Shown: positions 781 through 20,280 of the stretch, one piece after another
Layout of the letters: each line of letters opens with the position of its first letter
How positions within the stretch are numbered: position 1 is the stretch's first letter
Virus record (IMG/VR): IMGVR_UViG_3300021166_000052
Span: 197,424 to 261,423 of that record
Length of the DNA stretch: 64,000 nt
Source of the DNA: a virus
Lineage: Duplodnaviria; Heunggongvirae; Uroviricota; Caudoviricetes
Direction: 5' to 3' (one strand)
Notes under the pieces: generated by a model
What the model saw: only the letters and a program-made list of their open reading frames with translations
What the model was told of the DNA's origin: nothing
Database searches by the model: none
Position numbers and translations under genes: made by a program

Positions 781-866
781 GCCGTTGTGGTGGAACAGGA
801 AATACACGTTGGGTTTAGACCCCAATCCTTAAATGGATGCTAGTTCGATTCTAGTCAGCGGCACCA
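781..866 (+). tRNA. tRNA-Leu (anticodon UAG, class II with long variable arm)
   Basis: Hand-folded cloverleaf. Acceptor gccgttg/cagcggc with one G-U pair. Anticodon stem ttggg/cccaa, loop tttagac giving anticodon UAG. Long variable arm, T-arm gctag-ttcgatt-ctagt, discriminator A and encoded CCA. Confidence 0.8.
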
Positions 867-942: not shown

Positions 943-2034
943 ATGAGTAAATTAATCATTAATAATCCTAAAAATAACTTTAGTGCAATCATACCACCTA
1001 CAAATAAAGATGGTAGTTATAATGGTTATTCGCGTGGGAGCATGTGGATAAATATATTAACAGGGGTATGTTATTTATGTGTTAATGATATTTTAAATGG
1101 AGCTATTTAGAATCCACTAAGCACTGCTGATATTTCAGCGTTACTACAACGTTTAGATAATTTATCAATAGATTCTACTAATTTCGATTATAGACTTGAT
1201 ATTTTAGAAAATGATTCAACTGAATATGATAATAGATTAAATATTGTAGAAAGTTATGAAAATAGGATAACTATTTTAGAAGATGATTATACTACAACTG
1301 AAAATGATATTACGAGTTTATTTAATGTGATTGAATTAGATGAAAGTATAATTTCCAATCACGATGTGCGTATTATTAGTATAGAAAATTATGATACCAC
1401 TAATACTTCACATTTAAATATATTAACACAAAATATAACGGATTTACAGGATCGGTTATTAACAGACGAAACTAATTTAAAATTAGTTAATTTATTGGAT
1501 GTAGATTTATCAACTGTCCCTATTGATAGTCAAGTATTGAAATATGATTCGACTAATAATATATAGAAAGCTGGTGAAGCTGTTAATGCAGTAGCTGGGC
1601 TGGTTGATGTAGATTTATCTATACCTGCTTTAAATGATCAAGTACTAAAATATAATTCTATTAGCGATAAATAGTCACCACAAAATGTCATGAAGAGTGG
1701 ATCTATAACATTTAATATTACAAATGATATTACTATATTAATGAATAGTGTTAGATAGTATCCATTGGAAGAAATTTAGTTAACATCTGTTCAATGTTTG
1801 GTCAGTTCTCCTCCATTAGGAAATAATATAATTTTAGATATAAAAAGGAATAACGTTTCTATATTAGAGGGAAGGATATTAACAATTACACAATCAAATA
1901 ATATTGGTAATATATTATTATTCGATAATATTAATGTATTATCAACTGATTATATTACGGTCGAAATTAAACAAATAGGATCATCAATGCCGGGAAGTGA
2001 CTTATCGGTTAGATTAAAATATAATTTATATTAA
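943..2034 (+). CDS. tail-fibre-like repeat protein (TAG-recoded, 5 in-frame TAG)
   Basis: Single frame (start mod 3 = 1) runs continuously from ATG 943 to TAA 2032-2034. It is interrupted only by TAG at 1108, 1564, 1672, 1756 and 1777. Two copies of a DxDLSxxxxDxQxLKYxS(TAG)K repeat shared with gene 23604-24131. ORF-track fragments 1327..1566 and 1798..2034 are pieces of it. Confidence 0.6.
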
Positions 2035-2045
2035 AGGGAAAATAA

Positions 2046-4085
2046 ATGTCAGTAACACTTAATACAATAGGAGCCAACTCAAGACAATTAGTAATTACAG
2101 AGGAAGTTGGCCCTACAAATATAATTACCGCAATAAATACATCATTAACTGATCTGGGATAGACGCTGCATGACACTATAGTATCAGGTTCAAAGAATTG
2201 TTATACTTGTAAAGTATATGTTGCTCCAAATAATGATACAGCAACAGGTGGACCAACTTATAAATATTTAATATTAAGATTTGATGCACCTAAACAACAG
2301 TAGTATACTAGTTGTTCTGAAAATTAGAATAATACAACCCACGTAGCAACTAATGAATGTTTTACCAATGGTAGATCAATCCCATTACCATTACAGTATG
2401 ATAATTGTACATTATATATTTTTGCATCTAATAGATATGCTGCATTTTTAGGTAATGTTAATTCTGAATAGAGTGCATAGCAAGGTGTATTTGAATTTGA
2501 ACGGGAAGCCCCTGAAGATACCGCAACACTAGGATATCCGTGTTTTGGATGGACAACCTCTTTAAATATAGGCGAACCATAGGCAGGATCATTAGCAGCC
2601 GCAACTTCTACATATGGTCCTCTTCCATATGTTTTTTCTGTTCCAAGAACACGGACAGGGAATACTGGATTTGCCGCTATAACCGAATTTACAATACATA
2701 CTGCATTTGGAATGTATCCACCTAATAATAGTATATTTACATTATATGGTGTAACAGGTGGATTAACTGCTGTTGATAATAGTCATAATGGGCATTTAGG
2801 CGCATTTAATCATGGATATCGTTAGGATGGTGGTAAAAAAATAGCAAGTTCATTAAAATTGGGAGGATTTTCTATAGCATATCCAACCGGTAGAATATAT
2901 GGATTGACTGTAATTCCACCAACTGGGGCTGTATTAGATACAGTTGTTATTCCTTATGATGTTGATAAAAACTTTTTTAGTACAGATGGAACAAATGTCA
3001 ACACATTCATTTTACCAATCTCTGGTGGTTATTCAGACACTCCCTCAGTTGTTGCAAATGGATTAATTTCAACCGCATTTATTGGCGGTCCAGCTTATAC
3101 GGTTAATAAAGTAGAATTGATTAAAGGTAGAGTTGCATACATGGCAACATCTGGTGGTATTGTAAAACTTGATCTTGGTACTGGTGTATATACTACATTA
3201 AGTACCGCATCACTTCCTATTCAAGATGTTAAATATGATGGAGGATTGTATTTATATTTCTCTACAGCATCTGGTGTAACAAGACTGACAGTTGCTGATG
3301 ATACTTTAACTACGTTAGCATGTGGGACTGGTGGAACCTCCGCATTAGAAGTAGATGATGATTTTGTTTATGCATCACATAGAACTACTAGCACAACACC
3401 TAAGTTGGATATTATTAATAATACGACGTTTACAGTAGCTAGAACCTATACATCTACATATACAATGGCTATTGCACAGTCATAGAATGCATTATGTACT
3501 GCTGATTATGATGGATATGTATATGCGGCTATGCCAATATCAGCTAGTTCAAATATCAATGATTTACGATTGTTTAAAATATTAGGATCAGATGGATCAT
3601 CAACCAATACATTACCTACACAACGAACAGTGTCAAGTACTGGCGGTTTTATGTTTTAGGATGGGTCATTAATAATTTTATGTTATTCAGCGGCAGCAGT
3701 ATCAATTAATGGAATATTACCGACTACACTAGCCGATGGTATAGTTCCTGTCAATTTTGCAGCTACATCACCTTATACTAGAACCGGTTATTTAAATTGT
3801 GTATATCCATTTAAAGGTTATTATATTATACCAATACCAACTGCAACAAAGGTTGCATCTTTTTATAATAGATTAAATCAGCTCAACACAACTGCATTTG
3901 CTACATTTGGGGCAACGAATAATTATATGACAATTTCAACTATTGGGATACCTACGGCAGGAGCTACTGATTGTTGTTCTATGATAGTGGGAGGGGCATG
4001 TAATTCATTTTATAAAATAAGCAACACCCATAATATTTATAATAATGCAGGACAGCCTACATCAAATATATTAATACCCGCATAA
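2046..4085 (+). CDS. large virion/tail structural protein (TAG-recoded, 9 in-frame TAG)
   Basis: Codon-by-codon check of frame 0 from ATG 2046 to TAA 4083-4085. The only interruptions are TAG at 2160, 2301, 2325, 2469, 2478, 2580, 2823, 3483 and 3657. Gly/Thr/Ser/Asn-rich like receptor-binding proteins. Only one TGG in 680 codons. Confidence 0.6.
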
Positions 4086-4089
4086 ACTA

Positions 4090-4560
4090 ATGGCAGAATA
4101 GACCCCCGATTTTACACCGGAAACGTTTTTTAATCACAACTATGCCTATGAATATCCAATTATGTTGGGTACATAGGCAAGTTGCGAGTTTCAAAGACAA
4201 TTGAATTTTACTATTATGCGTTTTTTTATACAATCCCAGATTATATTTAAACAAGATGTGTATAAATATCCTAACGTGATTGGTATGTGGAACAATACAA
4301 AATTTATACCAACAAATGCTTATAAGTATCCAAATTTAAAAGGATTATATACAACGTTGATATTCAATGTAAATCGGTCATTTACATAGTTGAATATAAT
4401 TAAATATGGATTAGCTATAAATTCATATACGTAGGAAATAACTCCCCCAAATGATAATTATTCTAAATGTTTAGCAACCGACTAGAGAGTTTAGAAACAA
4501 ATGTCAACTACCAACCAAACACAAACGATAACAAAATCATCGAATCAATATTAGGCATAA
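4090..4560 (+). CDS. hypothetical small protein (TAG-recoded, 7 in-frame TAG)
   Basis: ATG 4090 lies just after the upstream TAA. A single frame runs to TAA 4558-4560 with 7 TAG. Contains ORF-track fragment 4201..4389. Confidence 0.4.
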
Positions 4561-4583
4561 TAAAAATATATTGACATATACTT

Positions 4584-4626
4584 AAAAAGTGTTATATTAA
4601 CAGTATAACACTTTTTATATTTTATC
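4584..4626 (+). terminator. intrinsic terminator hairpin (13-bp stem aaaaagtgttata/tataacacttttt) followed by T-rich tract
   Basis: Perfect inverted repeat with a 7-nt loop and a downstream U-run, at the end of the late module. Confidence 0.5.
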
Positions 4627-4712: not shown

Positions 4713-5198
4713 ATGAAAACCGAAGATAAATTTTTATTACATTTACTTGAAACCGCTATACGCATTGCTGTAACTGCTCATGCTGGGGTAATGGATAAAG
4801 CGGGTGTACCGTATATATTACACCCTCTCCGTATCATGGGTGGAGCCAAGGCACTTAAAGAGAAAATAGTTGGTGTTCTTCATGATACCATCGAAGATAC
4901 TGATGAAAACAGTTTATTAAATGTAACATTTGAATATCTTAGGGAAGAAGGGTTTCCTGATGATATCATTGAGGCGCTTGATTCCGTTACCCATCGTAAA
5001 GGTGAACCTTATGCAGATTATATACAACGTGCAAAGAAAAATATAATCGGTAGAAAGGTGAAAATACTTGACTTACGTGATAATTCTGATATATTCAGAT
5101 TACATTCGGTTGAGGAAAAGCATCTTAAACAAATGAAACGATATCATGCCGCAATGCTTGAATTGCGAAAGGATGGTAAAGTTTACATAACGAGGTGA
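4713..5198 (+). CDS. small alarmone hydrolase, RelA/SpoT-type HD domain ((p)ppGpp hydrolase)
   Basis: HD-domain motifs H...HD (LHDTIEDT) typical of SpoT/Mesh1 hydrolases. 161 aa, so a single-domain protein. Confidence 0.6.
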   Translation: MKTEDKFLLHLLETAIRIAVTAHAGVMDKAGVPYILHPLRIMGGAKALKEKIVGVLHDTIEDTDENSLLNVTFEYLREEGFPDDIIEALDSVTHRKGEPYADYIQRAKKNIIGRKVKILDLRDNSDIFRLHSVEEKHLKQMKRYHAAMLELRKDGKVYITR

Positions 5199-5199
5199 C

Positions 5200-5385
5200 A
5201 TGGAAATAGCAGATATTAAAATAAATAACAGTTATAGAGTAGTCTGTGGGTTTGATGAACGTTTTATGAACGATACAGTTGTTACTGTTATGGAAATCAG
5301 AGAAAGTGATTTACCATTCGTTTATTGTTACGGCTCACGGGGTGGATCAGCTTATATTAACATAAATAATTTAAAAAAAAAATAA
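5200..5385 (+). CDS. hypothetical small protein
   Basis: 61-aa ORF immediately after gene 4713. Confidence 0.3.
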   Translation: MEIADIKINNSYRVVCGFDERFMNDTVVTVMEIRESDLPFVYCYGSRGGSAYININNLKKK

Positions 5386-5464
5386 AATTGTAATTAACAC
5401 AATTTAGTGTTATACAAAATAAAAAGTCAACGATAATCAATAACTAATTGATGGAGACTAAACA

Positions 5465-5899
5465 ATGGAAGGATTGCGATACGTTTATTTTGGTGATGTA
5501 ATTGGAAAGCCTGATCATAAGGGCGTAGCTACAATCGGATATGCATATGATCCGGTTGATAAAAAAATGAAATATTCAGTTGCCTTCTGTAATCAGAAGG
5601 ATCGGTTTTTGAAATCCGAAGCACATAAACGCATCATTGCTCGGATGGAAGGTGGTGCAGTGTTTGTTGCGGGGTTTGATATTATTGATGATGTTGCCCC
5701 AAAGTATGAAGATACTATTAAGGACATCATTGACCAGTTTCAGGATTGCTTGACCCGGCCCATCATGGTTAAAGTGAAGGATAAGAAAACCCGTAAATAT
5801 CTCAGAAAACCAAACGGTGACTTTGTGATGGAAAAGGCGTATTTCTTTTGTAAGATTCGTGTTCCAAGCTGGGCCAAAAATATTATTAAACCGCGCTGA
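5465..5899 (+). CDS. hypothetical protein
   Basis: 144-aa ORF. The antisense ORF 5576..5929 is judged spurious. Confidence 0.45.
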   Translation: MEGLRYVYFGDVIGKPDHKGVATIGYAYDPVDKKMKYSVAFCNQKDRFLKSEAHKRIIARMEGGAVFVAGFDIIDDVAPKYEDTIKDIIDQFQDCLTRPIMVKVKDKKTRKYLRKPNGDFVMEKAYFFCKIRVPSWAKNIIKPR

Positions 5900-5955
5900 T
5901 AATATTTTTTTAACTTGTAAAATATCCACTGATGTGCTATTAAGTTAGTATATCG

Positions 5956-6918
5956 GTGGATATTTTTTTATATAGAGGACAAACTATTATGAATAATAAA
6001 TATAATGTTATAATTAGGGATGTTGGTGTATGTGGAATGAGGATTCAGATCGATGATCTTCACGATGCTCATATTGAACTAATTAACATAATGTTGGAAA
6101 CTCATAAACGGCTTATTATTGTACTAGGGGTGCGGCCTATTATATTTACTGCAAAAAATGCATTAACATTTCAAATGAGAAAACAGGCATTTTTTGAAGT
6201 GTTTGGAAATTATAAACATCGTATTACTTTATTATATATAAACGATGTAAGAGATGATCACATATGGTCAAATAATTTTGATAATCTTATCAAAAACAAT
6301 ATTAAGGAAAACGAAACTGTTAGATGTTGCGGAGGGAGGGATTCATTTTTAAATTATTATCATAATAATATTTATGAAAAATGGGTCATTACTGATTTTA
6401 CTCAGTCAGAATTCATTTCTGCAACTGCTAAACGGAATGAGATTGCTAAAACTACAATATTTGATTCTTCATTTAGGCGGGGTGTTATTTATTCCGCATT
6501 AAATTTACCGGGACAATGTGTGCCTTCAATTGATGTAGCAATATATGATCATTATGGTAATATATTAATGGGGCAACGGGTCGATGAATTATCATATCGT
6601 TTTATTGGGGGATGGGTTCAACCGAGAGAAACGTTTGAAATGGCGTGTAATCGAATTGTAAAAACCAAATGTGGAATCGCTATTGATAATTTACAACCAA
6701 TACGTAGTTTTTGTAATTTTGATTGGAAATTTAAAGGTGAACGAGATGATTTGACAACCATGTTATATACTGCATATATAACAGAAGGTACACCTGAACC
6801 ACTGGGAAATCTTAAATATCTACGATGGGTTTCGATTGTTGATATACTGAATGTGGTCGATTCAGAACATTTGGAATTGGCAAAATCTATTTACGAGTTA
6901 CATAATGCATCAAACTAA
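5956..6918 (+). CDS. NMN adenylyltransferase-like / Nudix-fold bifunctional protein (NatV/NadM-like)
   Basis: N-terminal cytidylyltransferase-like segment (G.R.Q....HDAH). C-terminal Nudix-like box GGWVQPRETFEMACNRIV, which is degenerate. Size and architecture match phage NatV, and it sits adjacent to Nampt. Confidence 0.5.
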   Translation: MDIFLYRGQTIMNNKYNVIIRDVGVCGMRIQIDDLHDAHIELINIMLETHKRLIIVLGVRPIIFTAKNALTFQMRKQAFFEVFGNYKHRITLLYINDVRDDHIWSNNFDNLIKNNIKENETVRCCGGRDSFLNYYHNNIYEKWVITDFTQSEFISATAKRNEIAKTTIFDSSFRRGVIYSALNLPGQCVPSIDVAIYDHYGNILMGQRVDELSYRFIGGWVQPRETFEMACNRIVKTKCGIAIDNLQPIRSFCNFDWKFKGERDDLTTMLYTAYITEGTPEPLGNLKYLRWVSIVDILNVVDSEHLELAKSIYELHNASN

Positions 6919-7159
6919 ATTAGGATCATTAATAGAGTCATCCACTAACGTAATCATAGGATATTTTATTGGTGTATTAACACAAATGTTATTATTTCCA
7001 TATTTCGGATTACATGTAACAATTGGCCAAAACATGTTGTTGTGTTTTTTATTTACAACAGTTAGTTTAATTCGAAATTATATAATCAGAAGATGGTTTA
7101 ATAATAGGTTGCATTTGTTTTCAGAAAAGATTAATATGATGGTACATGAAGTAAAATAA
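6905..7159 (+). CDS. small membrane protein (two predicted TM helices)
   Basis: In-frame ATG 6905 overlaps the end of the previous gene. Hydrophobic helices VIIGYFIGVLTQMLLFPYF and LLCFLFTTVSLI. Confidence 0.35.
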   Translation: MHQTKLGSLIESSTNVIIGYFIGVLTQMLLFPYFGLHVTIGQNMLLCFLFTTVSLIRNYIIRRWFNNRLHLFSEKINMMVHEVK

Positions 7160-7184
7160 ACCTTAGATAAAAAAATTAAACAAG

Positions 7185-8624
7185 GTGAATACAATGGAAC
7201 AAGATATGAGAAGTTTGGTAGAAGAATTTAATGTTATGACTGCAACCGATAGCTATAAACTCGGACGCGACCGCATGTTCTCTGAAGGGACCGAAAGTGT
7301 ATCCTCTTATTTTGAAGCTAGAGATGGTGCAAAATTTCAATATAATGTATTTTGTACACTCCAATATTTGTGTATGAAATATCTCTGTGGTAAGCAAGTC
7401 ACGAAAGCTAAAATCGATTGGGCTGAATATCTTTCTGAACTTCACCTCGGTCAGAAGGGCGCATTTGATCGATCCGGTTGGGATTACATCCTTCAAAAAT
7501 ACGATGGCCGGTTGCCTATTGAAATCTGTGCAGTTGCCGAAGGAACCCCTGTTCCAACTGGTAATGTTATGATGCAGATCAGAAATACCGATCCCAAAGT
7601 ACCAGTGTTATCAAATGCGATTGAGTCGATGATTACCCATGTTTGGGCAGGAACTACCGGAGCAAGTTTATCAAGGTATATCAAACAGATGCAAAAACGA
7701 TTTCTTGATATTTGTTGCGATACCCCCGATGAAGTTCTTCCTTTTATGCTGCATGATTTTGGTTATCGAGGGTCGTCAAGCCATGAATCTGCCAGACAAG
7801 TAGGCGCTGGTCACTTGCTCAATTTTTTAGGAACTGATACAGTACCAGCGATGGAATTGCTCATTCAATATTATGGAGCGTCTATTGATAGAGCGACTTT
7901 CAATGCAGGGTTTTCTATTTTTGCAACAGAACATCTTATCATGACTCAAAAAGGTGAAGCTGGTGAATTTGATGTAGTTGAAGAATTGTTGAATAAATAT
8001 CCCACTGGCAACCTTGCGATGGTAATTGATAGTTATAACTGGAAACGTTTTATTGAAACCATGGGAACACCTCGTTTCAAAGACCGTATATTGAACCGGG
8101 ATGGTAAGATTATTTTTCGGCCAGATTCAGGAAAGCCAGTTCCCACATCATTTGGTGTATGGAAAGGGCTTGCTAATATTTTTGGGTATGATACAAATAA
8201 TAAACGATATGATGTATTGAATCCAAAGGTTAGTACAATTTGGGGCGATGGTATTGATGAAGTCGAAGGTGAATCCATCTACCAAAACTTTATTGATAAT
8301 AAAATCTCGATTGAAAACTGTCCACTTGGTATGGGTGGCAATCTACATCAGAAAATCAATCGTGATACACAAAGGAACGCCTTTAAAGGTTCGTTTGTTC
8401 AACGTAATGGTGTTGGTTATGATATCTTTAAAGACCCCATTGATGGTAGTAAAAAATCTAAAAAGGGTAGGCTTGCTTTGATTAAAGATGCGGCGGGTAA
8501 TTTCCAAACCCTTCAGGGTGTGACCGGTCCAGTTGAGGGTGATCTTCTAATCCCAGTATTCCGTAATGGTGAGATGTTGAAAACATATACCCTTAATGAA
8601 ATGAGAGCAAACGCTGCATTATAA
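7185..8624 (+). CDS. nadV: nicotinamide phosphoribosyltransferase (Nampt / NadV)
   Basis: 479 aa. N-terminal TDSYK motif and overall Nampt-like length and composition. No in-frame TAG and six TGG Trp codons. Confidence 0.75.
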   Translation: MNTMEQDMRSLVEEFNVMTATDSYKLGRDRMFSEGTESVSSYFEARDGAKFQYNVFCTLQYLCMKYLCGKQVTKAKIDWAEYLSELHLGQKGAFDRSGWDYILQKYDGRLPIEICAVAEGTPVPTGNVMMQIRNTDPKVPVLSNAIESMITHVWAGTTGASLSRYIKQMQKRFLDICCDTPDEVLPFMLHDFGYRGSSSHESARQVGAGHLLNFLGTDTVPAMELLIQYYGASIDRATFNAGFSIFATEHLIMTQKGEAGEFDVVEELLNKYPTGNLAMVIDSYNWKRFIETMGTPRFKDRILNRDGKIIFRPDSGKPVPTSFGVWKGLANIFGYDTNNKRYDVLNPKVSTIWGDGIDEVEGESIYQNFIDNKISIENCPLGMGGNLHQKINRDTQRNAFKGSFVQRNGVGYDIFKDPIDGSKKSKKGRLALIKDAAGNFQTLQGVTGPVEGDLLIPVFRNGEMLKTYTLNEMRANAAL

Positions 8625-8627
8625 TTG

Positions 8628-8686
8628 TTGACATATTGTTAATTATTAGGTATAGTCTGGGTTATTAAATTAGCTCAGACTATACC
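8628..8686 (+). promoter_or_regulatory. promoter TTGACA-17-TATAGT overlapped by an 11-bp inverted repeat (ggtatagtctg...cagactatacc)
   Basis: -35 at 8628-8633, -10 at 8651-8656. Inverted-repeat arms at 8649-8659 and 8676-8686 bracket the -10 and +1 region. Followed by an AAGGAG RBS and ATG 8708. Confidence 0.4.
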
Positions 8687-8707
8687 TATTTTAAAGGAGA
8701 TAAATAA

Positions 8708-9067
8708 ATGTTAATTAGATCAGTTGCTATTGTTTTAGGCGATAATGATTTTGGCCAGACATTTCATAATTTATTAGAAACTATTTTACGTGTTATCGTG
8801 AATGATCCTATTATTAGTGAATATAGTATAGAAAAAATTATTAAAGAGGGCCTACGCTTTCACTACATTGCTTTTCAAAATAAATATGATCCATATTATG
8901 GGAATGGAGTGGATTCATTTAAAAAACATTTTGATCATATTGAAAATTATTTATCATCAATTCGCATTTATTTTAATGATGATGCCGAGCGAGAGTTTGA
9001 AAACGGGGATCATGATGGCGGAGCATGGATTTTATGTATACAAGATGGTTCGATTACATCATTTTAA
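8708..9067 (+). CDS. hypothetical protein
   Basis: 119-aa ORF with a strong RBS. Confidence 0.45.
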   Translation: MLIRSVAIVLGDNDFGQTFHNLLETILRVIVNDPIISEYSIEKIIKEGLRFHYIAFQNKYDPYYGNGVDSFKKHFDHIENYLSSIRIYFNDDAEREFENGDHDGGAWILCIQDGSITSF

Positions 9068-9092
9068 TGAAATAATAATGAAAGTGTGAAAA

Positions 9093-9614
9093 ATGATTAC
9101 ATTAGCAACAACATGTGGTATCTTTATTATAAATAAATTCAAACAAATACTTACATGTCATCCAACGGGTCATCATCCATTGCAATTGGATATACCAAAA
9201 GGATGTTTAGATCGAGGAGAAACTGTGTCTCAATGTGTTGTTAGAGAACTGTTAGAAGAAACTGGGATTGATTATTATACATTACAGCGGCCATTAATAG
9301 ATATTAGTGCGATACATGGGACATTTATATATAAGCATAAGAAAAAACAATTATATACATTTATGTTACAACTAAATGACACAATAGATGTAACTACCTT
9401 GAAATGTACAAGTATGGTTACGAGTGTACCCATTCCATTTCCAGAAGTAGATTCTTTTGCATGGATAGAATATAACGAAAGAGAGTTGCTACATGAATCT
9501 CAGCAACGTGCCATAGAAGTAATTAATGATCAATATAATATATTTGATTTACATTCATCCAAAGATGAAAATACTCAATATATAACAATTTCTAAAAGTA
9601 ATAATTATGGTTAA
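9093..9614 (+). CDS. Nudix hydrolase
   Basis: Canonical Nudix box GCLDRGETVSQCVVRELLEETGI (G-x5-E-x7-REUxEExGU). Confidence 0.7.
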   Translation: MITLATTCGIFIINKFKQILTCHPTGHHPLQLDIPKGCLDRGETVSQCVVRELLEETGIDYYTLQRPLIDISAIHGTFIYKHKKKQLYTFMLQLNDTIDVTTLKCTSMVTSVPIPFPEVDSFAWIEYNERELLHESQQRAIEVINDQYNIFDLHSSKDENTQYITISKSNNYG

Positions 9615-9642
9615 ATAAAAAATAATAATATTTCAAATATAT

Positions 9643-9676
9643 AGCCAGCACTTAATAGTGCTGGCTATTTTTTTTG
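9643..9676 (+). terminator. rho-independent terminator (agccagcac / gtgctggct stem plus T9)
   Basis: 9-bp GC-containing stem, 6-nt loop and a T-run directly after the Nudix gene. Confidence 0.6.
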
Positions 9677-9714
9677 TAATTAATTAATAAAAGTCAATAG
9701 TATAGGGACATTTA

Positions 9715-11343
9715 ATGTTAAGATATCAGCCTAAATATAATGTTAATGTAGATTCAACTGGATCTGGGGATTCTACAACAATAAATTTAATAAACGCGGG
9801 TAATGTTTAGGTAACAAATATTACATCTGGGGGTATTGTTTCTTCTAAAACATATATTCCCAATACTGTCCCTGCTAATTATATTTTAACTGCTGCTACA
9901 ACAGATCATCAAACTGTAACAATATTTTTTATTGCAGAACCTACAACATTATAGTCTCCAACTATTACAGTAGATGGAATAACGTGTACTAATTTAACAC
10001 AATATGCAGATGATAGACGATTATTTTCAGGGTCTGTTACAATAACAGTCGCATCATCAAAAACGGTTACACTAACTTCGAATACAGGGAAAAGTACAAC
10101 TGTTCAAGTCAATCGAGCCGCAATGGCCCCAACTATAACCGATATCAGATTTATTAATGGATATCCGGGTACTCAAACCGAAGTTAAACAAAATGATACA
10201 TTGACAGTTCGTGTAACATTTGATCCAGCAGGAACTGCCCCCACCCAAATAGATGTTATGGATTATGGTATATCACAATCTAAGACAGTTTTAACATCTT
10301 CAACTGAATTATCATAGGGAACAGTTCACACCGCCACATTTACAATATCCACAAAATATGTAGGCAACACTGCCCAATTATTACCTATACAATTACGAGC
10401 AAGAAATTTATTTGGTACTGCTAGTAATTATATAATTTCCAATGTATATGGTACTACGGAAACTATACAGGTAATGAAAGGATGTGATTTAGTTCCTACT
10501 ATTACTGTTAATGCCACTACATACCCATCGGGGCAGGGAGCTTTTAAAAATACAGAATCTGGTAACATAAATGTTACTATTTCTAATTATACAGGTGTTA
10601 CATATTCTTCTCCAAATGGAAATTTTACAATTACATCTCCAACTATATATGCTGCGTCAAAAACTATAACTTGTACTCATCCCGGAACATATAATGATTC
10701 TGTAAATAATATTAGAGTTGTAGCTACTCGTTCTGCAAATGCAACTTCTACAACAGCAAATTTCATAGTAGAAGTTGCAGATATTGCGCCTACTGTGAAT
10801 GTATATCATTCTGAATCATATTTAAGATCTACTGAAGCCGGTTACACTTATACTATATATGCTACTAGTAATCAAAATCTATTATCAGCCCCATCTTTTA
10901 ATATACCAGTTTCTGGTATATAGGTTGCTGGTGCATTTACTGGTTCTAATAAAAATTAGCAGCGAACAATATCTATTAGGGATAGTGATATAAAAGGAAC
11001 GGCTCCATAGAGTGCTACTATATTACCAACTAATAAAGCTAAAATTGATGCAATAATTACTGGAAACCAAATTGTTAGGGGATTTAGATCGAGAATTTTA
11101 CCATTACCTGCTTTTGGAACCAGTTGTACGTTAGGGACCGCTGTAACAAGTATTGCAAATTTAGTATTTTCATAGAGTTTTAAAACAGCTATGGCATATT
11201 CCCCAATTGGATCAGTTGCACCAATTGTAGGTGGATAGACTATTAGTGCATTAAATAATAATCCAACAACTATTTATATTTTAGATTCTCAGGCGGCGGC
11301 TGCTTCATCAGCGGCCAGCACAATAACTATAGAGGAAACATGA
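9715..11343 (+). CDS. virion/tail structural protein (TAG-recoded, ~9 in-frame TAG)
   Basis: Single frame from ATG 9715 to TGA 11341-11343. ORF-track pieces 10123..10317 and 10474..10923 are in the same frame. Thr/Ser/Asn-rich. No TGG seen in the long fragments. Confidence 0.55.
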
Positions 11344-11400
11344 TTAATATAAATAGTAAATATAATTAATTTAATAATATATTTAATGGGTTTGTAATAA

Positions 11401-12021
11401 ATGCCAACTACCGCCGAATTAGCATTCGAACTAGAACGCCGGATCATTGTTTTCCATAACGCAACATCTTTACCAGATGATACTCAATTAGGTTATATAG
11501 GTGATCCTAATAATGTTGTTAATGGTGCAACTGCTGGTCAAACTTTATTATATAATTGTCCATCTGGAACATTTTTTTTAGATAAATCACAAAATCCACA
11601 TGATATTTATCAAAAAGTACAAGATGGAGCCGGTGGATTATAGATTAAACATAATAGTTCAACTACTACAACCGGGACAATTGAATTTACTGATACAACA
11701 GTATTAGCATCTACTGATATCGGAGGAGGTAGAGTTGTAATAGTTTTTAATAATAGTGCAACATATGCGGATAACACAACTAATTATTTTGGCCAAATGG
11801 GAATTACATTAAATGCAGCATCAATTGGTGCAAGTTTAAAAGTTAGATTAGCTGGTATTATTGATGATGTAAGTTTTAATTTTATAAATGGTCCGTTATA
11901 TTTAAGTAATAATGGATTAATTACACAAGTAGAACCGATAACCAATGCTAGTGTAGTATTAGGTTATCCAAAAGATAACAAATCATTTTTATTTGATCCT
12001 CAGACAATTATAGAAAGGTAA
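11401..12021 (+). CDS. structural protein (1 in-frame TAG at 11641)
   Basis: Fragments 11401..11643 and 11797..12021 share a frame and are joined by one TAG. Ends in TAA. Confidence 0.5.
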
Positions 12022-12026
12022 ATTAT

Positions 12027-12533
12027 ATGGCTGATAAATATTTAAAGAACAATGGCGCTTCTTATAAAGAAGTAGGATTTTTAGTAACAAGTACTGGTGC
12101 AAGTGATGCTGGTAAAGGTGTTGGGTTGAATGCACAGGGCCGTCTGGACGAATCTTTGATGCCCGTGGGTCTTGGTGCGGATACTAAACAAATCGTGGCT
12201 GGCGAGGCTCTGGGTGCTGGTAATTACGTTAATGTTTATAGTGACTCAACAGTTTTTAAAGTCCGTAAAGCGGATGGAACTATTGAAGGAAAATTTGTCG
12301 ATGGCTTTGTATTGGCAGCATTTGCAGCCGATGATTTAGCAACTGTATACTTTGAAGGAACTAATAATCAATTAACCGGACAAGTTGCAGGGGATGTATT
12401 TTTAGCAACAACCGCAGGTGCTGGTACATCTACACCACCTAGCGCATCTGGAAATGTTGTTCAGCGAGTAGGTGTTGCAATTAGTCCAACTGAAGTTAAT
12501 TTTGAACGCGGAATGCCTACTGTATTAGCATAA
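12027..12533 (+). CDS. structural protein, Gly/Ala-rich
   Basis: Complete 168-aa ORF. No TAG and no TGG. Confidence 0.5.
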   Translation: MADKYLKNNGASYKEVGFLVTSTGASDAGKGVGLNAQGRLDESLMPVGLGADTKQIVAGEALGAGNYVNVYSDSTVFKVRKADGTIEGKFVDGFVLAAFAADDLATVYFEGTNNQLTGQVAGDVFLATTAGAGTSTPPSASGNVVQRVGVAISPTEVNFERGMPTVLA

Positions 12534-12559
12534 TCTTTGTTTTTTTGGTTTAAAAAATA

Positions 12560-13285
12560 ATGGCACGTAAACGACCACTAGCAATATACAATGGTATACT
12601 TAGAGAAATTAACAAAGGAGATACACTACCGCCTGATGTTTTAACGGATACTATCTCTTTTGGTAATGGGGTTGAAATAGTACTATCACAACACGGTGAT
12701 AGTACTTCAACCACCTTCACTCTATCTCGTCCTGTTGAGAAAGTATTAGTTGCTGTTAATGGTTTATTACAAACAAATTATATTCAACCAAATGGAACAG
12801 ATCAATTAGTATTAGGATTTACACCTGCATCCGATGATTTAATTATTGCATATTGTTTTGGCGAAACTACCACAACAGGAATAGCAACACTTAATCGCGT
12901 TTTGGATACAACTACTGATGGAACTACTAGTAATTATACATTAGATACCACTGCATATAATGTGATGGTTTTTTTAGATGGTATATTACAATATGATTTT
13001 GTTCATGGAAACGATTCTGATTATTTATATTTAGGATTTGTGCCAATAGCTGATAAAAAATTACAAGTATATTCTGTAGTTGGTGGTATAAAAGGACCAA
13101 AGGGTGATAAAGGTGAACCCGGTGAAGCGGCGGATCACGGCTTATTAACAGGACTTGGTGATGATGATCATCCCCAATATTTAAATGAAAGCCGTGCTGA
13201 TGAAATTTATATCAGATTAGATAATACTGATATTGGAGTAGACACTAGTTATCATCATATTCAATCAATATCATTGGATACGTAG
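12560..13285 (+). CDS. tail fibre protein with short collagen-like Gly-X-Y segment
   Basis: GPKGDKGEPGE triplet repeat. An upstream domain repeated in gene 14985..15926. Ends at TAG 13283-13285. Reading through would run about 150 nt further to TGA, so the end is uncertain. Confidence 0.5.
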   Translation: MARKRPLAIYNGILREINKGDTLPPDVLTDTISFGNGVEIVLSQHGDSTSTTFTLSRPVEKVLVAVNGLLQTNYIQPNGTDQLVLGFTPASDDLIIAYCFGETTTTGIATLNRVLDTTTDGTTSNYTLDTTAYNVMVFLDGILQYDFVHGNDSDYLYLGFVPIADKKLQVYSVVGGIKGPKGDKGEPGEAADHGLLTGLGDDDHPQYLNESRADEIYIRLDNTDIGVDTSYHHIQSISLDT

Positions 13286-13437
13286 TATATTGAACATAAT
13301 TTAAATAAATATCCTTCCGTAGTTATAATTGATTCATCTATGGATAAGGAAGAAGTATATGGAACAATAAAACATATAGACTTAAATAGACTTAATGTCT
13401 ATTTCTCATCAAACTTTACTGGAGAGGCATACTTATC

Positions 13438-14967
13438 ATGAAATTTTTAAATAATATTAATCTAACATTAAATGAAATCCAAAATGTAAAATTACATAAT
13501 CTAGGATCGGCACCTACTGGTTATGAAGGTTTAATTTACTACGATACCGCATTAAAACGTACCGGCGTTTATATGAATAGCACCTAGAAGTATTTTGTAA
13601 CATATGATTTACTAGGTGCTGCTTCTGGTGTTGCAACCCTGAATGCAAGTTCATTAGTGGTTCAAAATCCAGCAAGTGCTGCTTCTACATCAGGCGGAGC
13701 CGCTGGAGTTATCCCAATTACCCCCGCTGGTGGTAGATTAGACGGTTCATTTATTCCGCTATTAAATAATATACCAGCACCAACTGGGGCGGTATCGTTA
13801 AATTCACAAGCTATTACTAATTTAGCTAATCCTACCAATCCTCAAGACGCTGCTACTAAAAATTATGTAGATTCTGCTGTACAGGGACTTGATACTAAAG
13901 CATCTGTTCGTGTTGCAACTACGGGTGCTATTACTTTAACAAATACTCAAACAGTTGATGGTGTTTCATTAATTGTAGGTGATAGAGTATTAGTAAAAGA
14001 TCAAGGAACAGCTTCTGCTAATGGTATTTATATAGTATCTGCTACAGCATAGACAAGAGCTACTGATGCTGATTCGTGGAATGAATTAGTTGCAGCATAT
14101 GTGTTTATTGAAGAAGGTACAACTTATGCAGACACTGGTTAGGTTTGTACCGTTGATGCTGGTGGTACACTTGGAACAACTGATGTAACATTTGCTCAGT
14201 TTTCTGCCGCCGGTACTGTAACTGCTGCCAATGTAGGGGCAGGAACTGGTACTATCTTTAGAGATAAAACAGGAAATGTAATCAATTTAAAATCTATTGC
14301 CGCTGGTTCTACTAAATTAAGTATTACTAATAATGCAGATAATATTACATTGGATGTTAATGAAGCAAACTTAGTATTTGCTAATATGACATCTTCTGGA
14401 ACATTAGCTGTTGCAAAAGGTGGTACTGGAACTACTACTTCAACTGGTACTGGTTCTGTTGTATTATCAAATTCACCTGCATTAGTTACGCCAACTTTAG
14501 GAGTAGCAACTGCTACATCTATAAATAAGGTAACTATTACTGCTCCAACATCAGGAGCTACATTAACTATTGCAGACGGTGCAACATTATCTACTGCTGG
14601 ATCATATACTTTAATGTTAACTGCTACTGGAGCAACAAATGTAACTTTTCCGACATCTGGTACATTGTTAAGCACAGCAGCAGCAGTAACAGTTGCACAG
14701 GGTGGTACAGGTTCAACTACAGCGGCTGGAGCTAAAACTAATTTAGGTTTTATGACTCGTTATTCTGCTGACATTGGTAATGGTTCATTGACTACTATTC
14801 CAGTTGTACATGGTTTGAGTACATTAGATGTTCAAATTACGGTATATGAAAAAGCTGGAAATTCTGTAGTGTATCCTGATATTATGTTAACTGATGCTAA
14901 TACTGCTTCAATTGTATTCTCAGTAGCTCCAACTGTAAATCAATATAGAGTAGTTGTAATAGGATAA
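13438..14967 (+). CDS. tail fibre protein (conserved phage tail-fibre N-terminal domain; 3 in-frame TAG)
   Basis: The segment VRVATTGAITLTNTQTVDGVSLIVGDRVLVKDQGTASANGIYIVSATA(TAG)TRATDADSW...ADTG(TAG)VCTVDAGGTLGTT..FAQFS matches a widespread phage tail-fibre domain. An AKGGTG...TNLG motif lies downstream. Frame is continuous through fragments 13657..14052 and 14350..14967. Confidence 0.65.
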
Positions 14968-14984
14968 TTAAAGGAGATTGACTA

Positions 14985-15926
14985 ATGCCTAAAATATTGG
15001 GACAGACGGAAGTAGTTGGTAGTTTAACGGCTACTTCCGTCAATGGTATTACTGGTTTAAATTCCAACGATGGTACAATTCAACCAAATGGTAGTGTAGC
15101 AGACGCTGGTATATCTAATTATGCAGCAAGGGCAGATCATGTTCATGTTGGTGGTATCGGTGGCGGTGCGTCTTATTTAAATGATTTACTTGATGTCAAC
15201 ATTAGTTCTGTTGCAGATGGAAATGTATTATTATATGATTCAGATACTACCAATTAGGTTAATGTGGTATCAAATATAGAAAGTATCGAAACTGTTTTAG
15301 ATACTACAGGAAATGGAACTACTACATTTACTTTATCTAAAGCGGTTGGTAAAGTATTAACTACAATAGATGGTATAGTTCAAAGAGATTTTACACAACC
15401 AAATGGTACAAATCAGTTAGTTTTTGGTTTTATACCAGATACAACAGAAAATGTTACAGCATATAGTTTTAATAATATATCAGTAGGCGGTGGTGGAGGA
15501 GCTAGTACATTAGATGAACTAACTAATGTTAATGCTCCATCTCCAACTGAAGACCAAATATTATCATAGGATTCTACGAGCGGCCAGTAGATTGCAAAAA
15601 CATTAGTTATTGGTGATGACACATCTGGTATAGTTTTATCAGAAATTGGAACTGCTACTATAAATTTCGGTGATTAGCCCGGTCAAAATGAAGCCACAAT
15701 TATATTAGATACATTAACTAATATAACATCTACTGCTAAAATTACAGCATAGATAACCGCTGATTCTACATCGGAAGATCATTCAGAGAGTGACCACCGA
15801 TATTTAGCATTATTTACAAAATTAGTTTGTACATCTCCGATTGCTGGTGTTGGATTTACTATATATTGTATATCAGAACATAAATTAGAAGGACATTTTA
15901 CTATCAATTAGGCATAGACTGATTAA
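14985..15926 (+). CDS. tail-fibre-like protein (7 in-frame TAG)
   Basis: Frame 0 is continuous from ATG 14985 through TAG 15255, 15567, 15588, 15675, 15750, 15909 and 15915 to TAA 15924-15926. Shares a domain with 12560..13285. Confidence 0.5.
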
Positions 15927-15939
15927 GAGGAGATGAAAC

Positions 15940-16707
15940 TTGCCACCATATAAAACATATATTAGAGAGTAGGATTGTAAGCCACCATCACATATACCAA
16001 TTAGAACAGATAATCATTAGTCTACACAAGGATTAGTTTATTGTAATATGTTTAATGAATCGTTAATGGAAAGTATTTCTGGGGTTGTTGGTGATCCAAC
16101 TGGTAATATAATAACACCAGATGGTGTAAGATTTACTGAAGATACTGATAGATTGGTATATCCACCACATATAAAACCTATGCAACTAAATCAAACTAGC
16201 ACTGTTATTGTAACTACTAAATTTGATGTTAAAAAATAGACACCAAATATGAAGTTATTAGCTGTTGATGGTAATGACATTACATTTTATAATTTAGGAA
16301 AATATATTTATTTGGATTTTTATTATGCTGGCAACGCTTCTGTTATTGCTTATAATGATAGTTATAATAAGTAGACGCAATGGATTTCTATACGGGCCGC
16401 TACTTATAAAAGTATATATATAAATTGTGAAATGGCAACGCAAGTAATGGATATGAATGGTGGGTATATTAATTCAACATCTAGTATGACATTTGGTAAT
16501 AGTGTTATAGATGATAGTAATCCATTTAAAGGTACTATTGGATATATGTTAGTTTATAATAGAACTCTTACTGAAAGAGAAATGACACTATTATAGCAAA
16601 ATCCATATCAAATGTACGAACCCGAAGTATTGTATATTGACCAAGAAAGACCATATAATTATCAAATCACTAAAACAAACCGAAGTAAAATATTTAATTT
16701 AAGTTAA
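15940..16707 (+). CDS. LamG/concanavalin-like jelly-roll protein (paralog 1; TTG start; 5 in-frame TAG)
   Basis: AAGAGGAG RBS 7 nt upstream of TTG 15940. C-terminal FKGTIGYMLVYNRTLTEREMTLL resembles the LamG fold. N-terminus parallels gene 17114 (YKxYIxE(TAG)DxKPP...H(TAG)S). Confidence 0.4.
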
Positions 16708-16718
16708 AGGGAATAAAA

Positions 16719-17114
16719 ATGGCATAGTCTAATAAAACGACCCTCACTGGAGTTGGGGCCGAATTAAGTGAGATCACAAATATTGATGCTAATTATGTAG
16801 ATGTTAATCATTATACTGAGTGGGTAACATTAAACCCCGGTGAAATTGCAGATTTAGAAATTAATGTGGTTTTTGGTGCAGGTGGAACCGATGTTTGGTA
16901 CAGAGTTGTGAAAACATTAGATGAAACTTCTGAAGCTCCACAAAATATACCATATATAGCAGGAGTATTTGCATATTCATCTAGTGGCAATTATAAAAAA
17001 TCAGTAGTAATATCTAATTGTTATAAATTTAGAATCGAATTTAGAAAAGGTGGAACCACTGCTGGTACATATACACCTTATGTATATATGAGAAAGAATG
17101 GTGTGTCTGTGTAA
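16719..17114 (+). CDS. small structural protein (1 in-frame TAG)
   Basis: ATG 16719. Fragment 16866..17114 is in the same frame. Stop TAA overlaps the next ATG (gtgTAATGg). Confidence 0.4.
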
Positions 17115-17914
17115 TGGCGGCATATAAACAATATATTAAAGAATAGGATACTAAACCTCCATCTGGTACAAAATTAAGAACCGATGGCCATTAGTCTGTT
17201 AAAAATCTAGTATATTGTAATACATTTAATGATTCATTTACAGAAAGTGTCAACGGAATAATTGGTACACCTTATGGTAATATATTAACACCAGATGGTG
17301 TTTGTTTTACAAATGATACTGATAAATTAGTATATCCAGCTAATACATTTAAAATGTTAGGTTCACTAATTGGCCCCTATACAATTTTATTTTCGTTTAG
17401 ACCACCAGATATATATCAAACAGAAGCAAATTCATATATTATTGGCAACGGATCACAAGAAATAGCTTTATTTTAGGTAGGCCCATCTACATTTAATATG
17501 GATTTTACAATGGGACTATCATCATTAAATCAATTAAATACGGCTCTACATTACGACCAATAGCAACACTGGCAATTAATACGTACATTACAGGGAACAA
17601 TATCATTTTTAAATGGTGTTATGATAGAAGCATCAGACGAACCGGAGTATGGTGATATAATAACTACAAATCCATAGATTTTTGGTAATAATAGCACAGA
17701 TACAGGGGTATTTAAAGGAACAATCGGGTATTTTTATATTTATAACACTGATTTTGTTAATTATCATACCCCGACATAGGAACTAGATTCTTTATAGAAA
17801 AATCCATACCAGATGTTTGAATCAGAAGTATTATATATTGATCAAGAAAAACCAAAAATGTATAATATAACTGAAACTAATAGATCACAAAATTCGATGT
17901 TAATTGGTTAGTAA
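17114..17914 (+). CDS. LamG/concanavalin-like jelly-roll protein (paralog 2; ~8 in-frame TAG)
   Basis: Read by eye in frame 2 from ATG 17114 to TAG-TAA at 17909-17914. N-terminal 60 aa are about 60% identical to gene 15940. C-terminal FKGTIGYFYIYN motif. Confidence 0.4.
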
Positions 17915-17957
17915 TGTTAATAAAATAAATTAATTATTAAATATAAGGTTTTGAAAA

Positions 17958-18275
17958 ATGATTCCAAAAATAGAAGATAGAGATTATAAATATCAAGGTA
18001 ACAATATTTGTAGTATTTTTGCTACTTTAAATATATATGCTGATGACAACACAACTATCGTAGATAGTGTAAAGTTACAAGCAAATTTTGATATATCTGA
18101 TGTAGATAATGTTGTTGCGTTTGCAACCGAACAATTATCATCACAAGTAATGGATTATATGTCAAAATTAGTTTATATTGATAATTTAAGAAAACAGATA
18201 TTTCCAACGTCAATAGACTTTAAAGACGCAATTAATTCTATATTAGATCCAATTCAAGCATCACTTGTTGGATAA
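17958..18275 (+). CDS. hypothetical protein
   Basis: Complete 105-aa ORF. Confidence 0.45.
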   Translation: MIPKIEDRDYKYQGNNICSIFATLNIYADDNTTIVDSVKLQANFDISDVDNVVAFATEQLSSQVMDYMSKLVYIDNLRKQIFPTSIDFKDAINSILDPIQASLVG

Positions 18276-18309
18276 TATAATAAAATAAGAAATAAATAGG
18301 AGATCAAAC

Positions 18310-19776
18310 ATGTCATTAGATACAACAATTAAAGGATCGACAACTGGAAATGGTGCAGAAGTTGATTCTGTTCATAGATTAAAAGTAAACTTAGCAACCG
18401 GTGATGTACCAGCGGAAGTGGGCGGGGTACGCAATTTTTCCGAAGTAGATCCCGGTACACGAACAGGCTCTCCTTTATTACGATCAAATGAAGTTAGTAT
18501 GGATTATCGAGCTAGAGTTGGAACTGATACTGTTCTATTTAGTGATATCTTTAATGCTGGTGCCCAAAATATTAGTTTATATAAATGTGCATTCACCACA
18601 ATGACATTAACTCAATCTGCTGGATTTTTGAATATAAATGCAGCGGGAACATCTACAGTATCTGGTAACTATGCACAATTACAAACATAGAGATATTTTC
18701 CTTTGATTGGAACATCGCCACTCGCTGTAGAATTTGTAATAATGGTTGATAGATATCCAGTTGCAAATGAAACATTTTTATGTGGTTTGGGCGTAGCGAA
18801 TGCTGCAAATGAACCAATTGATGGTGTGTAGTTTGAATATACTGATGCTGGATTGAAGGGTTGTCAAAAATATAATAGTGGCGTTACTGATAAAGTACTA
18901 TTAATGAATGCTAATGAATTAACTTTTAATACTACTAAAAAATTTGTATTAGTTGTTAGTTATGATAAAATAGAATTTTAGATCAATGATATTTTATATG
19001 GTACATTAAATAGAGATGCTGCAACTGGTATACCGTTTATTACTGGGGCATTACCATGGTTTTGTACTAAATATAATAATGCTGTAATTGGAACATCTCC
19101 AAATATGAAAGTAATGATTGCTAATGTAAATATTACTTTAATGGATATTTCCTCTAATATGACATAGAGTGGCCAGATGGCCAGTGCTGGTCTTGTTATG
19201 CAGCAGATGAATGGTGGTACTGCTGGTTCCCCACAAGTCCAATGGGCTAATACTGCATTACCTACAGCAGCAGCAGCAACAAATACTACAGCGGCATTGG
19301 GGGCATTTTTAGGAGGTATTTTCCAAATGAACGCTCCTGCAACATCCGCAACTGATATTATTATAGCTAGTTATTTAAATCCAGTCGGTGGCGTTGCACA
19401 GACTCCACGAACAATTAAATTAAGAGGAATTAAAGTAGATTGTGTTAATGCAGTTGTTGCTGTTGCCACAACAGCTACTACATTTGCAGTAGCTGTAGCA
19501 TAGGGTGGAACAACTTTAACATTAGCAGCCACTGAATCTGCAAGTTTCGCAACTGCAACTGTCAAAGCTCGTAGAATACAACCAATTGGTGTAATAACAT
19601 TCCCGATTGCATCACCGGTAGGATATGCAGCATCGCCAATTCAGTTCGATTTTGAAGCACCACTTCTTATAAGTCCGGGTGAGTATGTTCAAATAATAGC
19701 AAAACCACTAATTGGAACAGCGACATCAACTGAAGTATTTCAATGGATTATATCACCAAATTTGTATTGTGAATAA
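18310..19776 (+). CDS. large structural protein (5 in-frame TAG)
   Basis: Fragments 18310..18690 and 19177..19503 are in the same frame. Continuous to TAA 19774-19776. Ala/Thr-rich. Confidence 0.5.
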
Positions 19777-20278: not shown

Positions 20279-20280
20279 AG

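Follow-up and report, generated by a model that had tools for sequence, protein, structure and literature searches.

The 64,000 nucleotides analysed here (the window; positions 197,424 to 261,423 of IMG/VR record IMGVR_UViG_3300021166_000052, a virus of the Caudoviricetes) contain two classes of protein-coding gene, one in which the codon TAG occurs in frame and one, including a putative nicotinamide adenine dinucleotide (NAD) salvage cassette at 4713-9614, in which it does not, and it is well supported by the sequence comparisons below that TAG stands for tryptophan in the first class. The partition of the window into these two coding classes is real and highly non-random. The model that we favour, at a probability of roughly 0.7, is one of two regimes, in which the TAG-free genes would be written in the code of the host and the virion and other late genes would use TAG as Trp, through a Trp-charged tRNA with a CUA anticodon that appears during infection.

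The window has a G+C content of 31.5 % over its 64 kb and nearly all of its genes on the plus strand. Its open reading frames (ORFs) tile it when the stops are TAA and TGA, and many long ORFs break if TAG is added as a stop; the gene set used throughout, 84 curated plus-strand genes, was re-derived with TAA and TGA as the sole stops. The product of gene 9715-11343 is a tail sheath (PHROG 15433, E = 2e-65) that shares 30-34 % identity with its counterparts in the jumbo phages NCTB, Noxifer, PhiPA3 and PaBG, and NadV (P0058) on a 276,095-bp JGI contig is 100 % identical to the NadV of the window. Taken together, these matches assign the window, as far as sequence can tell, to the genome of an AT-rich jumbo myovirus.

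Partition of TAG and TGG among genes

In-frame TAG is found in 19 of the 84 plus-strand genes, which hold 83 TAG and 23 TGG in 5,715 codons (1.45 % and 0.40 %), whereas the remaining 65 have no in-frame TAG and 152 TGG in 13,069 codons (TGG 1.16 %). Off-frame TAG occurs in these TAG-free genes at normal rates (18.7 and 16.2 per 1000 codons), and the in-frame absence is therefore selective. Three virion blocks, at 943-4560, 9715-20844 and 23604-26121, together contain 74 TAG and 19 TGG, as against 9 TAG and 156 TGG in the rest of the window (Fisher p = 4.6e-36), and in 20,000 shuffles of codon identity among genes the number of TAG-free genes was at most 37 and never reached the 53 observed. 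An initial annotation of this DNA had already described 4713-9614, 20897-23574 and most of 26237-63778 as free of TAG, as our codon counts bear out, and had put the structural genes at about 2 % TAG with almost no TGG; they are indeed TAG-rich, though that figure is somewhat high against a measured 1.3-1.45 %, and the scarcity of TGG is roughly as it claimed (the 0.40 % above is for all 19 TAG genes). The gene-by-gene comparison of TAG and TGG that it proposed, run on the 84 genes of the window, thus confirms the partition and the replacement of TGG by TAG.

TAG is also avoided as a terminator, with 64 TAA, 20 TGA and no TAG at the ends of the 84 genes in this TAA/TGA-delimited set. Two TAGs on the plus strand are probably genuine stops, one of an early gene at 37412-37414, with an in-frame TGA eight codons downstream, and one at 44442-44444, with a TGA immediately after it, and the genes that end at them otherwise use TGG; such tandem stops are not a special feature, since 12 of the 84 genes carry them anyway. 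Within genes the spread of TAG is even (18, 13, 13, 19 and 20 in successive fifths of gene length). The codon is enriched in structural genes and wanting in the presumed early ones, timing being judged here by gene function and promoter type, and the sheath, a fibre-like protein, an RCC1-repeat protein and a C1 peptidase all align over their full length with homologues once TAG is read through. The TAG class thus probably comprises virion genes and others that are likely to be late, and the TAG-free class genes of metabolic, repair and anti-defence type.

Evidence that TAG encodes tryptophan

The most direct comparison is with a related locus (L001, Logan SRR23971560_821) that has the same order of NatV-like, NadV, Nudix and sheath genes and a sheath 71-75 % identical to that of the window. 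Over the sheath gene and the one downstream of it, aligned codon by codon, the nine TAGs of the window stand opposite four TAG and five TGG in L001 and nothing else; the two other TAGs of L001 in this alignment stand opposite TAT and TTT in the window. When the sheath is compared with 54 full-length homologues, W, F or Y stands in each of the eight TAG columns, W makes up 50 % or more of just two columns of the alignment, at both of which the window has TAG, and the log-odds summed over the TAG columns are +22.6 for W, +11.7 for F and +7.9 for Y, those of all other residues, including Gln, being negative. Among the 13 closest homologues (alignment A1), W201 and W403 are invariant and W487 nearly so, and all three are TAG in the window.

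Other protein families point to the same residue. In the fibre-like protein (13438-14967), W is the commonest residue in each TAG column, occurring in 18, 100 and 103 of 150 sequences, which are cluster representatives out of 29,003 homologues. The four TAGs of the C1 peptidase lie opposite Y, W, W and W of PDB 3ois, and one of them is the invariant Trp of the papain-like NSWG motif that is also seen in the cathepsin K chains found by the same search. In the RCC1-repeat protein TAG falls at WG positions and alternates with TGG between internal repeats (SLTNW, SLTDW, and SLTT followed by TAG). Composition agrees, as the share of Tyr is alike in both gene classes (4.86 % and 4.83 %) and in the TAG genes TGG alone is depleted (0.40 % vs 1.16 %), TAG at 1.45 % filling the Trp deficit. 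So does context: the base after an in-frame TAG is distributed as after any sense codon (p = 0.47), with no special +4 context, and after true stops it is T or A in 73 of 84 cases.

Set against the known alternative codes, these data show the signature of a code 32-type assignment, namely Trp in the TAG columns and interchange of TAG and TGG between relatives. They do not show that of code 15, in which the TAG columns would be Gln: Gln has negative log-odds, Trp ranks first and TAG interchanges with TGG in the relative. Nor is it code 4, with TGA as Trp, since 20 of the 84 genes terminate in TGA and the window is tiled by ORFs when TGA counts as a stop. Pyrrolysine was dropped as a candidate because the TAG sites match Trp in ordinary structural proteins.

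Once TAG is Trp, the rarity of TGG needs no explanation of its own. TAG makes up 0.78 of TAG plus TGG in the TAG genes, near the A-ending share of the Lys, Glu, Gln, TTR-Leu and AGR-Arg pairs in the same genes (0.82-0.90), which fits AT-biased synonymous drift as a sufficient cause, selection against TGG being unnecessary. The sheath of L001, with four TAG and four TGG, appears less far along this drift than that of the window, with eight TAG and no TGG.

Promoter-like signals and putative expression classes

Two classes of promoter-like signal in the window match the codon classes, as sequence motifs support. All 14 plus-strand sites of the form TTGACA-N16-18-TAnnnT precede a TAG-free gene, and nine of the 14 are intergenic (intergenic DNA being about 10 % of the window), seven of these nine lying in 26237-63778. 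The second signal, an AATTAAT box, stands 30-37 nt upstream of the ATGs at 943 (the box of block 1, at 908), 9715 (9678-9688, plus strand, 33-37 nt before the sheath ATG), 11401, 17958 and 23604 and of the minus-strand ATG at 28520 (37 nt), and 61 nt before 51015. At that distance it accompanies 7 of 23 TAG-class units vs none of 62 TAG-free genes outside the virion blocks (p = 5e-5). In L001 it precedes the sheath gene and the next one downstream, and in a second relative, L003, the TAG-containing genes at 5768, 17728 and 19856. Taken together with the functions of the genes, the two classes fit an early set that would be transcribed by the host RNA polymerase and a late set under separate control.

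tRNAs and decoding machinery

The tRNA search covers 64 kb of a genome of about 276 kb, and the tRNA-type elements that it returned do not read UAG. The tRNA at 781-866 (plus strand) adjoins a TAG-rich block and was considered as an amber suppressor, but was rejected, since its anticodon, 5'-UAG-3', pairs with the codon CUA and makes it a tRNA-Leu. Directly upstream of it lie a YqeY/GatB-C-like gene (27-359, a weak match) and a paralogue-like ORF (372-773), and in L001 (4957-5480) a YqeY-like gene is likewise followed by a tRNA with a UAG anticodon, the two tRNA sequences being different. A tRNA-Ser(GCU) is encoded at 62155-62242 (plus strand), and 13 nt after it, on the same strand, comes a tRNA-like cloverleaf with the anticodon ACG (62256-62323), of about 55 % GC, with an anticodon loop CUACGAA, a T-loop UUCGACU and no encoded CCA. 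This GC-rich element does not reach the default thresholds of ARAGORN and Rfam, has a fold z-score of -1.3, and was set aside as a suppressor or theta ribozyme on account of its tRNA-like cloverleaf and ACG anticodon. CUA-anticodon candidates from a relaxed ARAGORN and Rfam E-value scan lay inside coding regions and were not credible. No theta ribozyme was found in the window, no tRNA in a 7.5-kb extension of L003, and no release factor or tryptophanyl-tRNA synthetase (TrpRS) in Pfam and NCBIfam scans that covered part of the ORFs of the window.

A two-regime model and its alternatives

The two-regime model would account for these observations as follows. About three quarters of the genes, the NAD-salvage cassette among them, would be written for the standard code of the host and seemingly transcribed from sigma-70-like promoters, and the virion genes, together with the C1 peptidase, a secreted protein and one minus-strand gene, would read TAG as Trp. 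A CUA-anticodon tRNA charged with Trp, probably encoded outside the window, would appear during infection, and only then could full-length virion proteins be made. Genes needed before that time could not tolerate TAG, and in genes translated later TGG would be free to drift to TAG under AT pressure up to the usual A/G ratio. Gating of the late proteins would follow automatically and may or may not be the selected function. Charging with Trp might depend on a TrpRS encoded by the phage, on a tRNA with unusual identity elements, or on a Trp tRNA that is modified or edited; it is tempting to speculate that the RNA ligases and the RlmN/Cfr-like and MiaB/RimO-like enzymes encoded in the window assist in it.

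Several observations weigh against this model. The suppressor tRNA that the initial annotation expected the phage to supply is missing from the window, where the tRNAs are the Leu and Ser species described above, and neither a CUA-anticodon tRNA, nor TrpRS, release factor 2 or an antagonist of release factor 1, the last two of which it had proposed looking for, turned up in the 64 kb of the window or in roughly 75 kb from related loci. An E. coli tRNA-Trp given a CUA anticodon is charged mainly with Gln, so that charging with Trp would need explaining here. The AATTAAT box also stands before three TAG-free genes in L003 and in a further relative, L005, and hence is not diagnostic, and one gene inside a virion block (19796-20278) has two TGG and no TAG.

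The alternative that deserves most thought concerns function rather than decoding. The partition may be a passive by-product, with a suppressor present for other reasons and TAG neutral in late genes, and with no role in timing or in protecting the host against virion or lysis proteins made prematurely; we regard this as possible, but would adopt it only tentatively. The TAG share roughly equals the neutral A/G codon bias, TAG is spread evenly along genes and has no special base context, and the separate promoter-like classes could set the timing by themselves. Yet this explanation shares every observed fact with the two-regime model and differs from it solely in whether the gating was selected, and an average of four TAGs per gene would still block a late protein that was made too early. 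The translational timing switch proposed in the initial annotation accordingly stands as plausible, with some support from the difference in promoter type, and the same pattern is equally open to the passive explanation. An origin of the TAG-free genes as horizontal imports from standard-code organisms, too recent to have gained TAG, is improbable. The low GC (27 %) and bacterial-type enzymes of the TAG-free island at 20897-23574 would suit it, as would a NadV that is just 34 % identical between L001 and the window while neighbouring genes are 48-89 % identical; against it, 65 of 84 genes are too many for recent imports, and the window shares its grouping of NatV-like, NadV and Nudix genes with L001, L003 and L005. 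NadV has no TAG and 35 TGG across these four lineages while the sheath flips between TGG and TAG in two close relatives, and TAG is therefore actively excluded from the NAD-salvage cassette.

The agreement of sequence comparison, composition and context makes the remaining readings, in which TAG is Gln (code 15), Tyr, Phe or pyrrolysine or the ORFs are pseudogenes or assembly errors, poor explanations. It is true that homologues have mainly F or Y in two TAG columns of the sheath, that TAG is one mutation away from the Tyr codons and that all published phage TAG recodings that we found are to Gln. Another aromatic residue or Gln is nevertheless very unlikely given the interchange of TAG with TGG in L001, the first rank of W in most TAG columns over four families, invariant Trp sites included, the strongly negative log-odds of Gln, and an unchanged use of Tyr where TGG alone is depleted. 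Hardly credible is the suggestion that the TAG-containing ORFs are pseudogenes, assembly errors or products of low-efficiency readthrough, or that the host itself reads TAG as Trp. The lack of a suppressor in the window speaks for it, but relatives assembled independently have TAG at conserved positions, the ORFs run to full length and have essential virion proteins as homologues, there are 83 TAGs across 19 genes, and a host that read TAG as Trp would not leave 65 genes wholly free of it.

Relation to known codes and significance

Recoding of a stop codon in late genes is already known. In crAss-like, Lak, Agate, Jade and other phages, early genes use the standard code and late or lysis genes a recoded one (10.1101/2021.08.26.457843; PMC7886860; 10.1101/2022.06.29.495998), and published surveys find suppressor tRNAs in just a fraction of recoded phages. 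The phage described here resembles these gut phages in having blocks with and without the in-frame stop codon, in concentrating that codon in structural genes while avoiding it as a terminator, and in having a host that presumably uses the standard code. It differs in reading TAG as Trp rather than Gln, with TAG as about 78 % of the Trp codons in its recoded genes, and in being an AT-rich jumbo myovirus with a sheath of the PhiPA3/PaBG/NCTB type and a relative binned with Candidatus Neomarinimicrobiota; the matching CUA suppressor tRNA of recoded phages is moreover lacking from the 64 of about 276 kb seen here and from the related loci.

Published phage recodings are TAG to Gln and TGA to Trp or Gly, and among phages whose code differs from that of their host only TAG to Gln and TGA to Trp have been seen, according to Borges et al. 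(10.1101/2021.08.26.457843). The closest hint of another assignment comes from phage amber-suppressor tRNAs associated with theta ribozymes, with Trp as the predicted isotype in 19.4 % of 180 examples ('rarely reported code 32'; Kienbeck et al. 2024, PMC10879173); these are isotype predictions on gut phages, without protein-level evidence, and were read by the authors as code 15 (PMC10879173). They suggest that some phage tRNAs with a CUA anticodon derive from tRNA-Trp, and in the window neither such a tRNA nor the ribozyme was found. A full-text literature search of incomplete coverage turned up no report of phage TAG to Trp at the protein level, an earlier description being possible; as we found no such report, the assignment of TAG to Trp is what appears to be new. 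On balance we lean slightly towards regarding this as the first protein-level evidence for a natural TAG-to-Trp code of a virus, confined to its late genes, which would imply that a tRNA(CUA) is charged with Trp and not with Gln in a bacterium of standard code.

NCBI translation table 32, the plastid code of Balanophoraceae, has TAG as Trp. The codon assignment and the strong AT bias of the genome are common to both systems; the plastid code is genome-wide and organellar, whereas that of the window covers part of a viral genome in a standard-code cell. The likeness to code 4 of Mycoplasma and some phages lies in the gain, under AT pressure, of an AT-richer Trp codon (there about 80-90 % of Trp codons); in contrast to code 4, TGA remains a stop in the window, ending the 20 genes already mentioned, and because a CUA anticodon cannot also read UGG, two Trp tRNAs would be needed.

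The earlier rule of TAG to Gln and TGA to Trp or Gly has been ascribed to the readiness of host glutaminyl-tRNA synthetase and TrpRS to accept the corresponding suppressor tRNAs. A lineage with TAG as Trp breaks this rule and points to natural charging of a CUA-anticodon tRNA with Trp, which would be useful to genetic-code engineers. Such phages will be mistranslated, with Q in the place of W, by annotation pipelines limited to codes 4, 11 and 15. Close relatives with differing TAG/TGG ratios, together with distant ones that have no recoding, offer a clean comparison for the spread of a code change, and the correlation of codon class with promoter-like class renders the idea of a code switch as a late-gene gate testable.

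Relatives and distribution

Besides L001, the related loci come from GCA_029931905.1 (L003, L004 and L007, the last being the 7.5-kb extension of L003, all on the 197-kb contig JAOZRH010000001.1) and GCA_029935735.1 (L005). The early genes that they have in common with the window are 33-60 % identical, and these loci also hold conserved TAG-bearing ORFs, including homologues of 2046-4085, recognised by eye, with TAG at similar sites. Recoded and unrecoded loci could be told apart by a count over long ORFs, but not by a crude ratio of the ORF coverages obtained when TAG was or was not treated as a stop; TAG-rich ORFs in two other loci (L011 and L016) proved to be off-frame or antisense artefacts. 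Recoding is present in at least three related phages and was not seen in 29 IMG/VR relatives drawn from the sheath alignment (29-47 % identity), which on the sequences at hand marks it as a derived trait of a narrow AT-rich subclade. Megablast of 25 kb of the window against GenBank phages and tblastn of 18310-19776 gave no match, and a concatenated 3.4-kaa query for further relatives matched only two TPR/glycosyltransferase proteins.

Contig JAOZRH010000001.1 was deposited in a metagenome-assembled genome of Candidatus Neomarinimicrobiota (GMC6.concoct.244), and this binning is either a clue to the host or an artefact. Another contig of a relative, JAPOGZ010000004.1, is 130 kb long. In L001 (1-179), a 713-aa ORF for a family-B DNA polymerase stops soon after the KxxxNSxYG motif, which suggests that the polymerase is split in this clade.

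The TAG-free cassette at 4713-9614

This plus-strand cassette has no TAG and 18 TGG. It encodes a SpoT/RelA-HD-like hydrolase (4713-5198, a weak match), a protein without assigned function (5465-5899), a NatV-like NMNAT-Nudix protein (5989-6918), a DUF7220 membrane protein (6851-7159), NadV/Nampt (7194-8624), a second protein without assigned function (8708-9067) and a Nudix hydrolase (9093-9614). The match of NadV is clear (NAPRTase and NAMPT_N, 1e-26 to 1e-31); those of the NatV-like protein lie below curated cut-offs, the NMNAT half scoring 42.7 bits against a cut-off of 198, and it is with this sub-cut-off part that the predicted function of the cassette is NAD salvage. The initial annotation had counted six Trp in NadV and five in the NatV-like protein, correctly, for proteins that are 476 and 309 aa long (it gave 479 and 320). 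NAD+ salvage by phage NadV and NatV is of the type seen in vibriophage KVP40, which the window cassette resembles in having Nampt and, by its sub-cut-off matches, a putative bifunctional NMNAT-Nudix protein; the likeness concerns the content of this TAG-free block and not the coding phenomenon. In the relatives L003 (12729-14515) and L005 (13149-13946) the cassette is extended by a NAD kinase and in L003 also by a phosphoribosyl pyrophosphate synthetase, both absent from the cassette of the window.

The gap upstream of the cassette contains a near-consensus sigma-70-like promoter on the plus strand (4571-4598, TTGACA-16-TATATT with TG), a second such promoter lies within the cassette (8628-8656), and the cassette is closed by an intrinsic terminator (9641-9668, plus strand) that has a T-run and a stem of 12 bp; the terminator is conserved in L001, where it differs only in the loop and the inner part of the stem. 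At 4585-4617, AAAAAGTGTTATA and TATAACACTTTTT form a perfect inverted repeat of 13 bp, which overlaps the -10 element of the promoter-like sequence upstream of the cassette (4571-4598) and has a T-rich run after it. This repeat might act as an operator or, for the TAG block upstream, as an AT-rich terminator.

Other blocks and genes

All three TAG-rich blocks are on the plus strand. Block 1 (943-4560; 21 TAG, 3 TGG) comprises genes 943-2034, 2046-4085 and 4090-4560, the products of which are tail-fibre-like or unassigned virion proteins. Block 2 (9715-20844) contains the sheath gene (9715-11343) and those for fibre-like proteins, two LamG-like paralogues (15940-16707 and 17114-17914), a protein with an S74 chaperone domain and the RCC1-repeat protein (20281-20844). 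The first LamG-like gene uses TTG as its start codon, 7 nt downstream of a ribosome-binding site GAGGAG (15927-15942), and its conserved N-terminus aligns with that of the ATG-started paralogue; a call from the first ATG would drop 36 residues and two TAG codons. Block 3 (23604-26121) has 9 TAG and 2 TGG, and its gene 23604-24131 consists of four repeats with TAG at the same position in each.

Between blocks 2 and 3, inside the virion module, is the plus-strand TAG-free island (20897-23574; 0 TAG, 16 TGG), with genes for a methyltransferase, a 446-aa protein and a sulfotransferase. The best matches of the 446-aa protein are giant TPR/heptosyltransferase-like proteins, and the island may be a cassette for modification of surface glycans.

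TAG also occurs in isolated genes. The lone minus-strand gene (27999-28520), for which the initial annotation had reported TAG, has a single one 15 codons after its ATG at 28520, which is preceded by a strong AAGGAG ribosome-binding site, and the papain-family C1 peptidase (51015-51752, plus strand; Peptidase_C1, E = 9e-17), also listed there, has four. A gene that it had missed (38561-39250, plus strand) has three TAGs; its product, a secreted protein, carries a signal peptide at the N-terminus and ends in a PEP-CTERM-like tail (VPEGS, a hydrophobic helix and KSKK), possibly a sign that the host is Gram-negative and has an exosortase.

The mostly TAG-free region (26237-63778, plus strand) encodes RNA repair and modification enzymes and others, among them three RNA ligases, RlmN/Cfr-like and MiaB/RimO-like radical-SAM proteins, HDIG, RNase T, RNase H, macro-domain and SPFH proteins and an SLT lysozyme. 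Genes for RNA repair and modification are dense here (26237-27322, 48250-49269, 59295-59927, 41951-42907, 43142-43966, 62399-63448 and 60085-60822) and comprise the three ligases, one of Rnl1 type, two RlmN/Cfr-like radical-SAM proteins, a MiaB/RimO-like methylthiotransferase beside the tRNA-Ser, and HDIG; most of the matches are below curated cut-offs, and one of the two RlmN/Cfr-like proteins is recognised solely by its GCxxxCxFC motif. This putative set could serve tRNA repair or a remodelling of translation. The relative L005 additionally encodes a Thg1-like protein.

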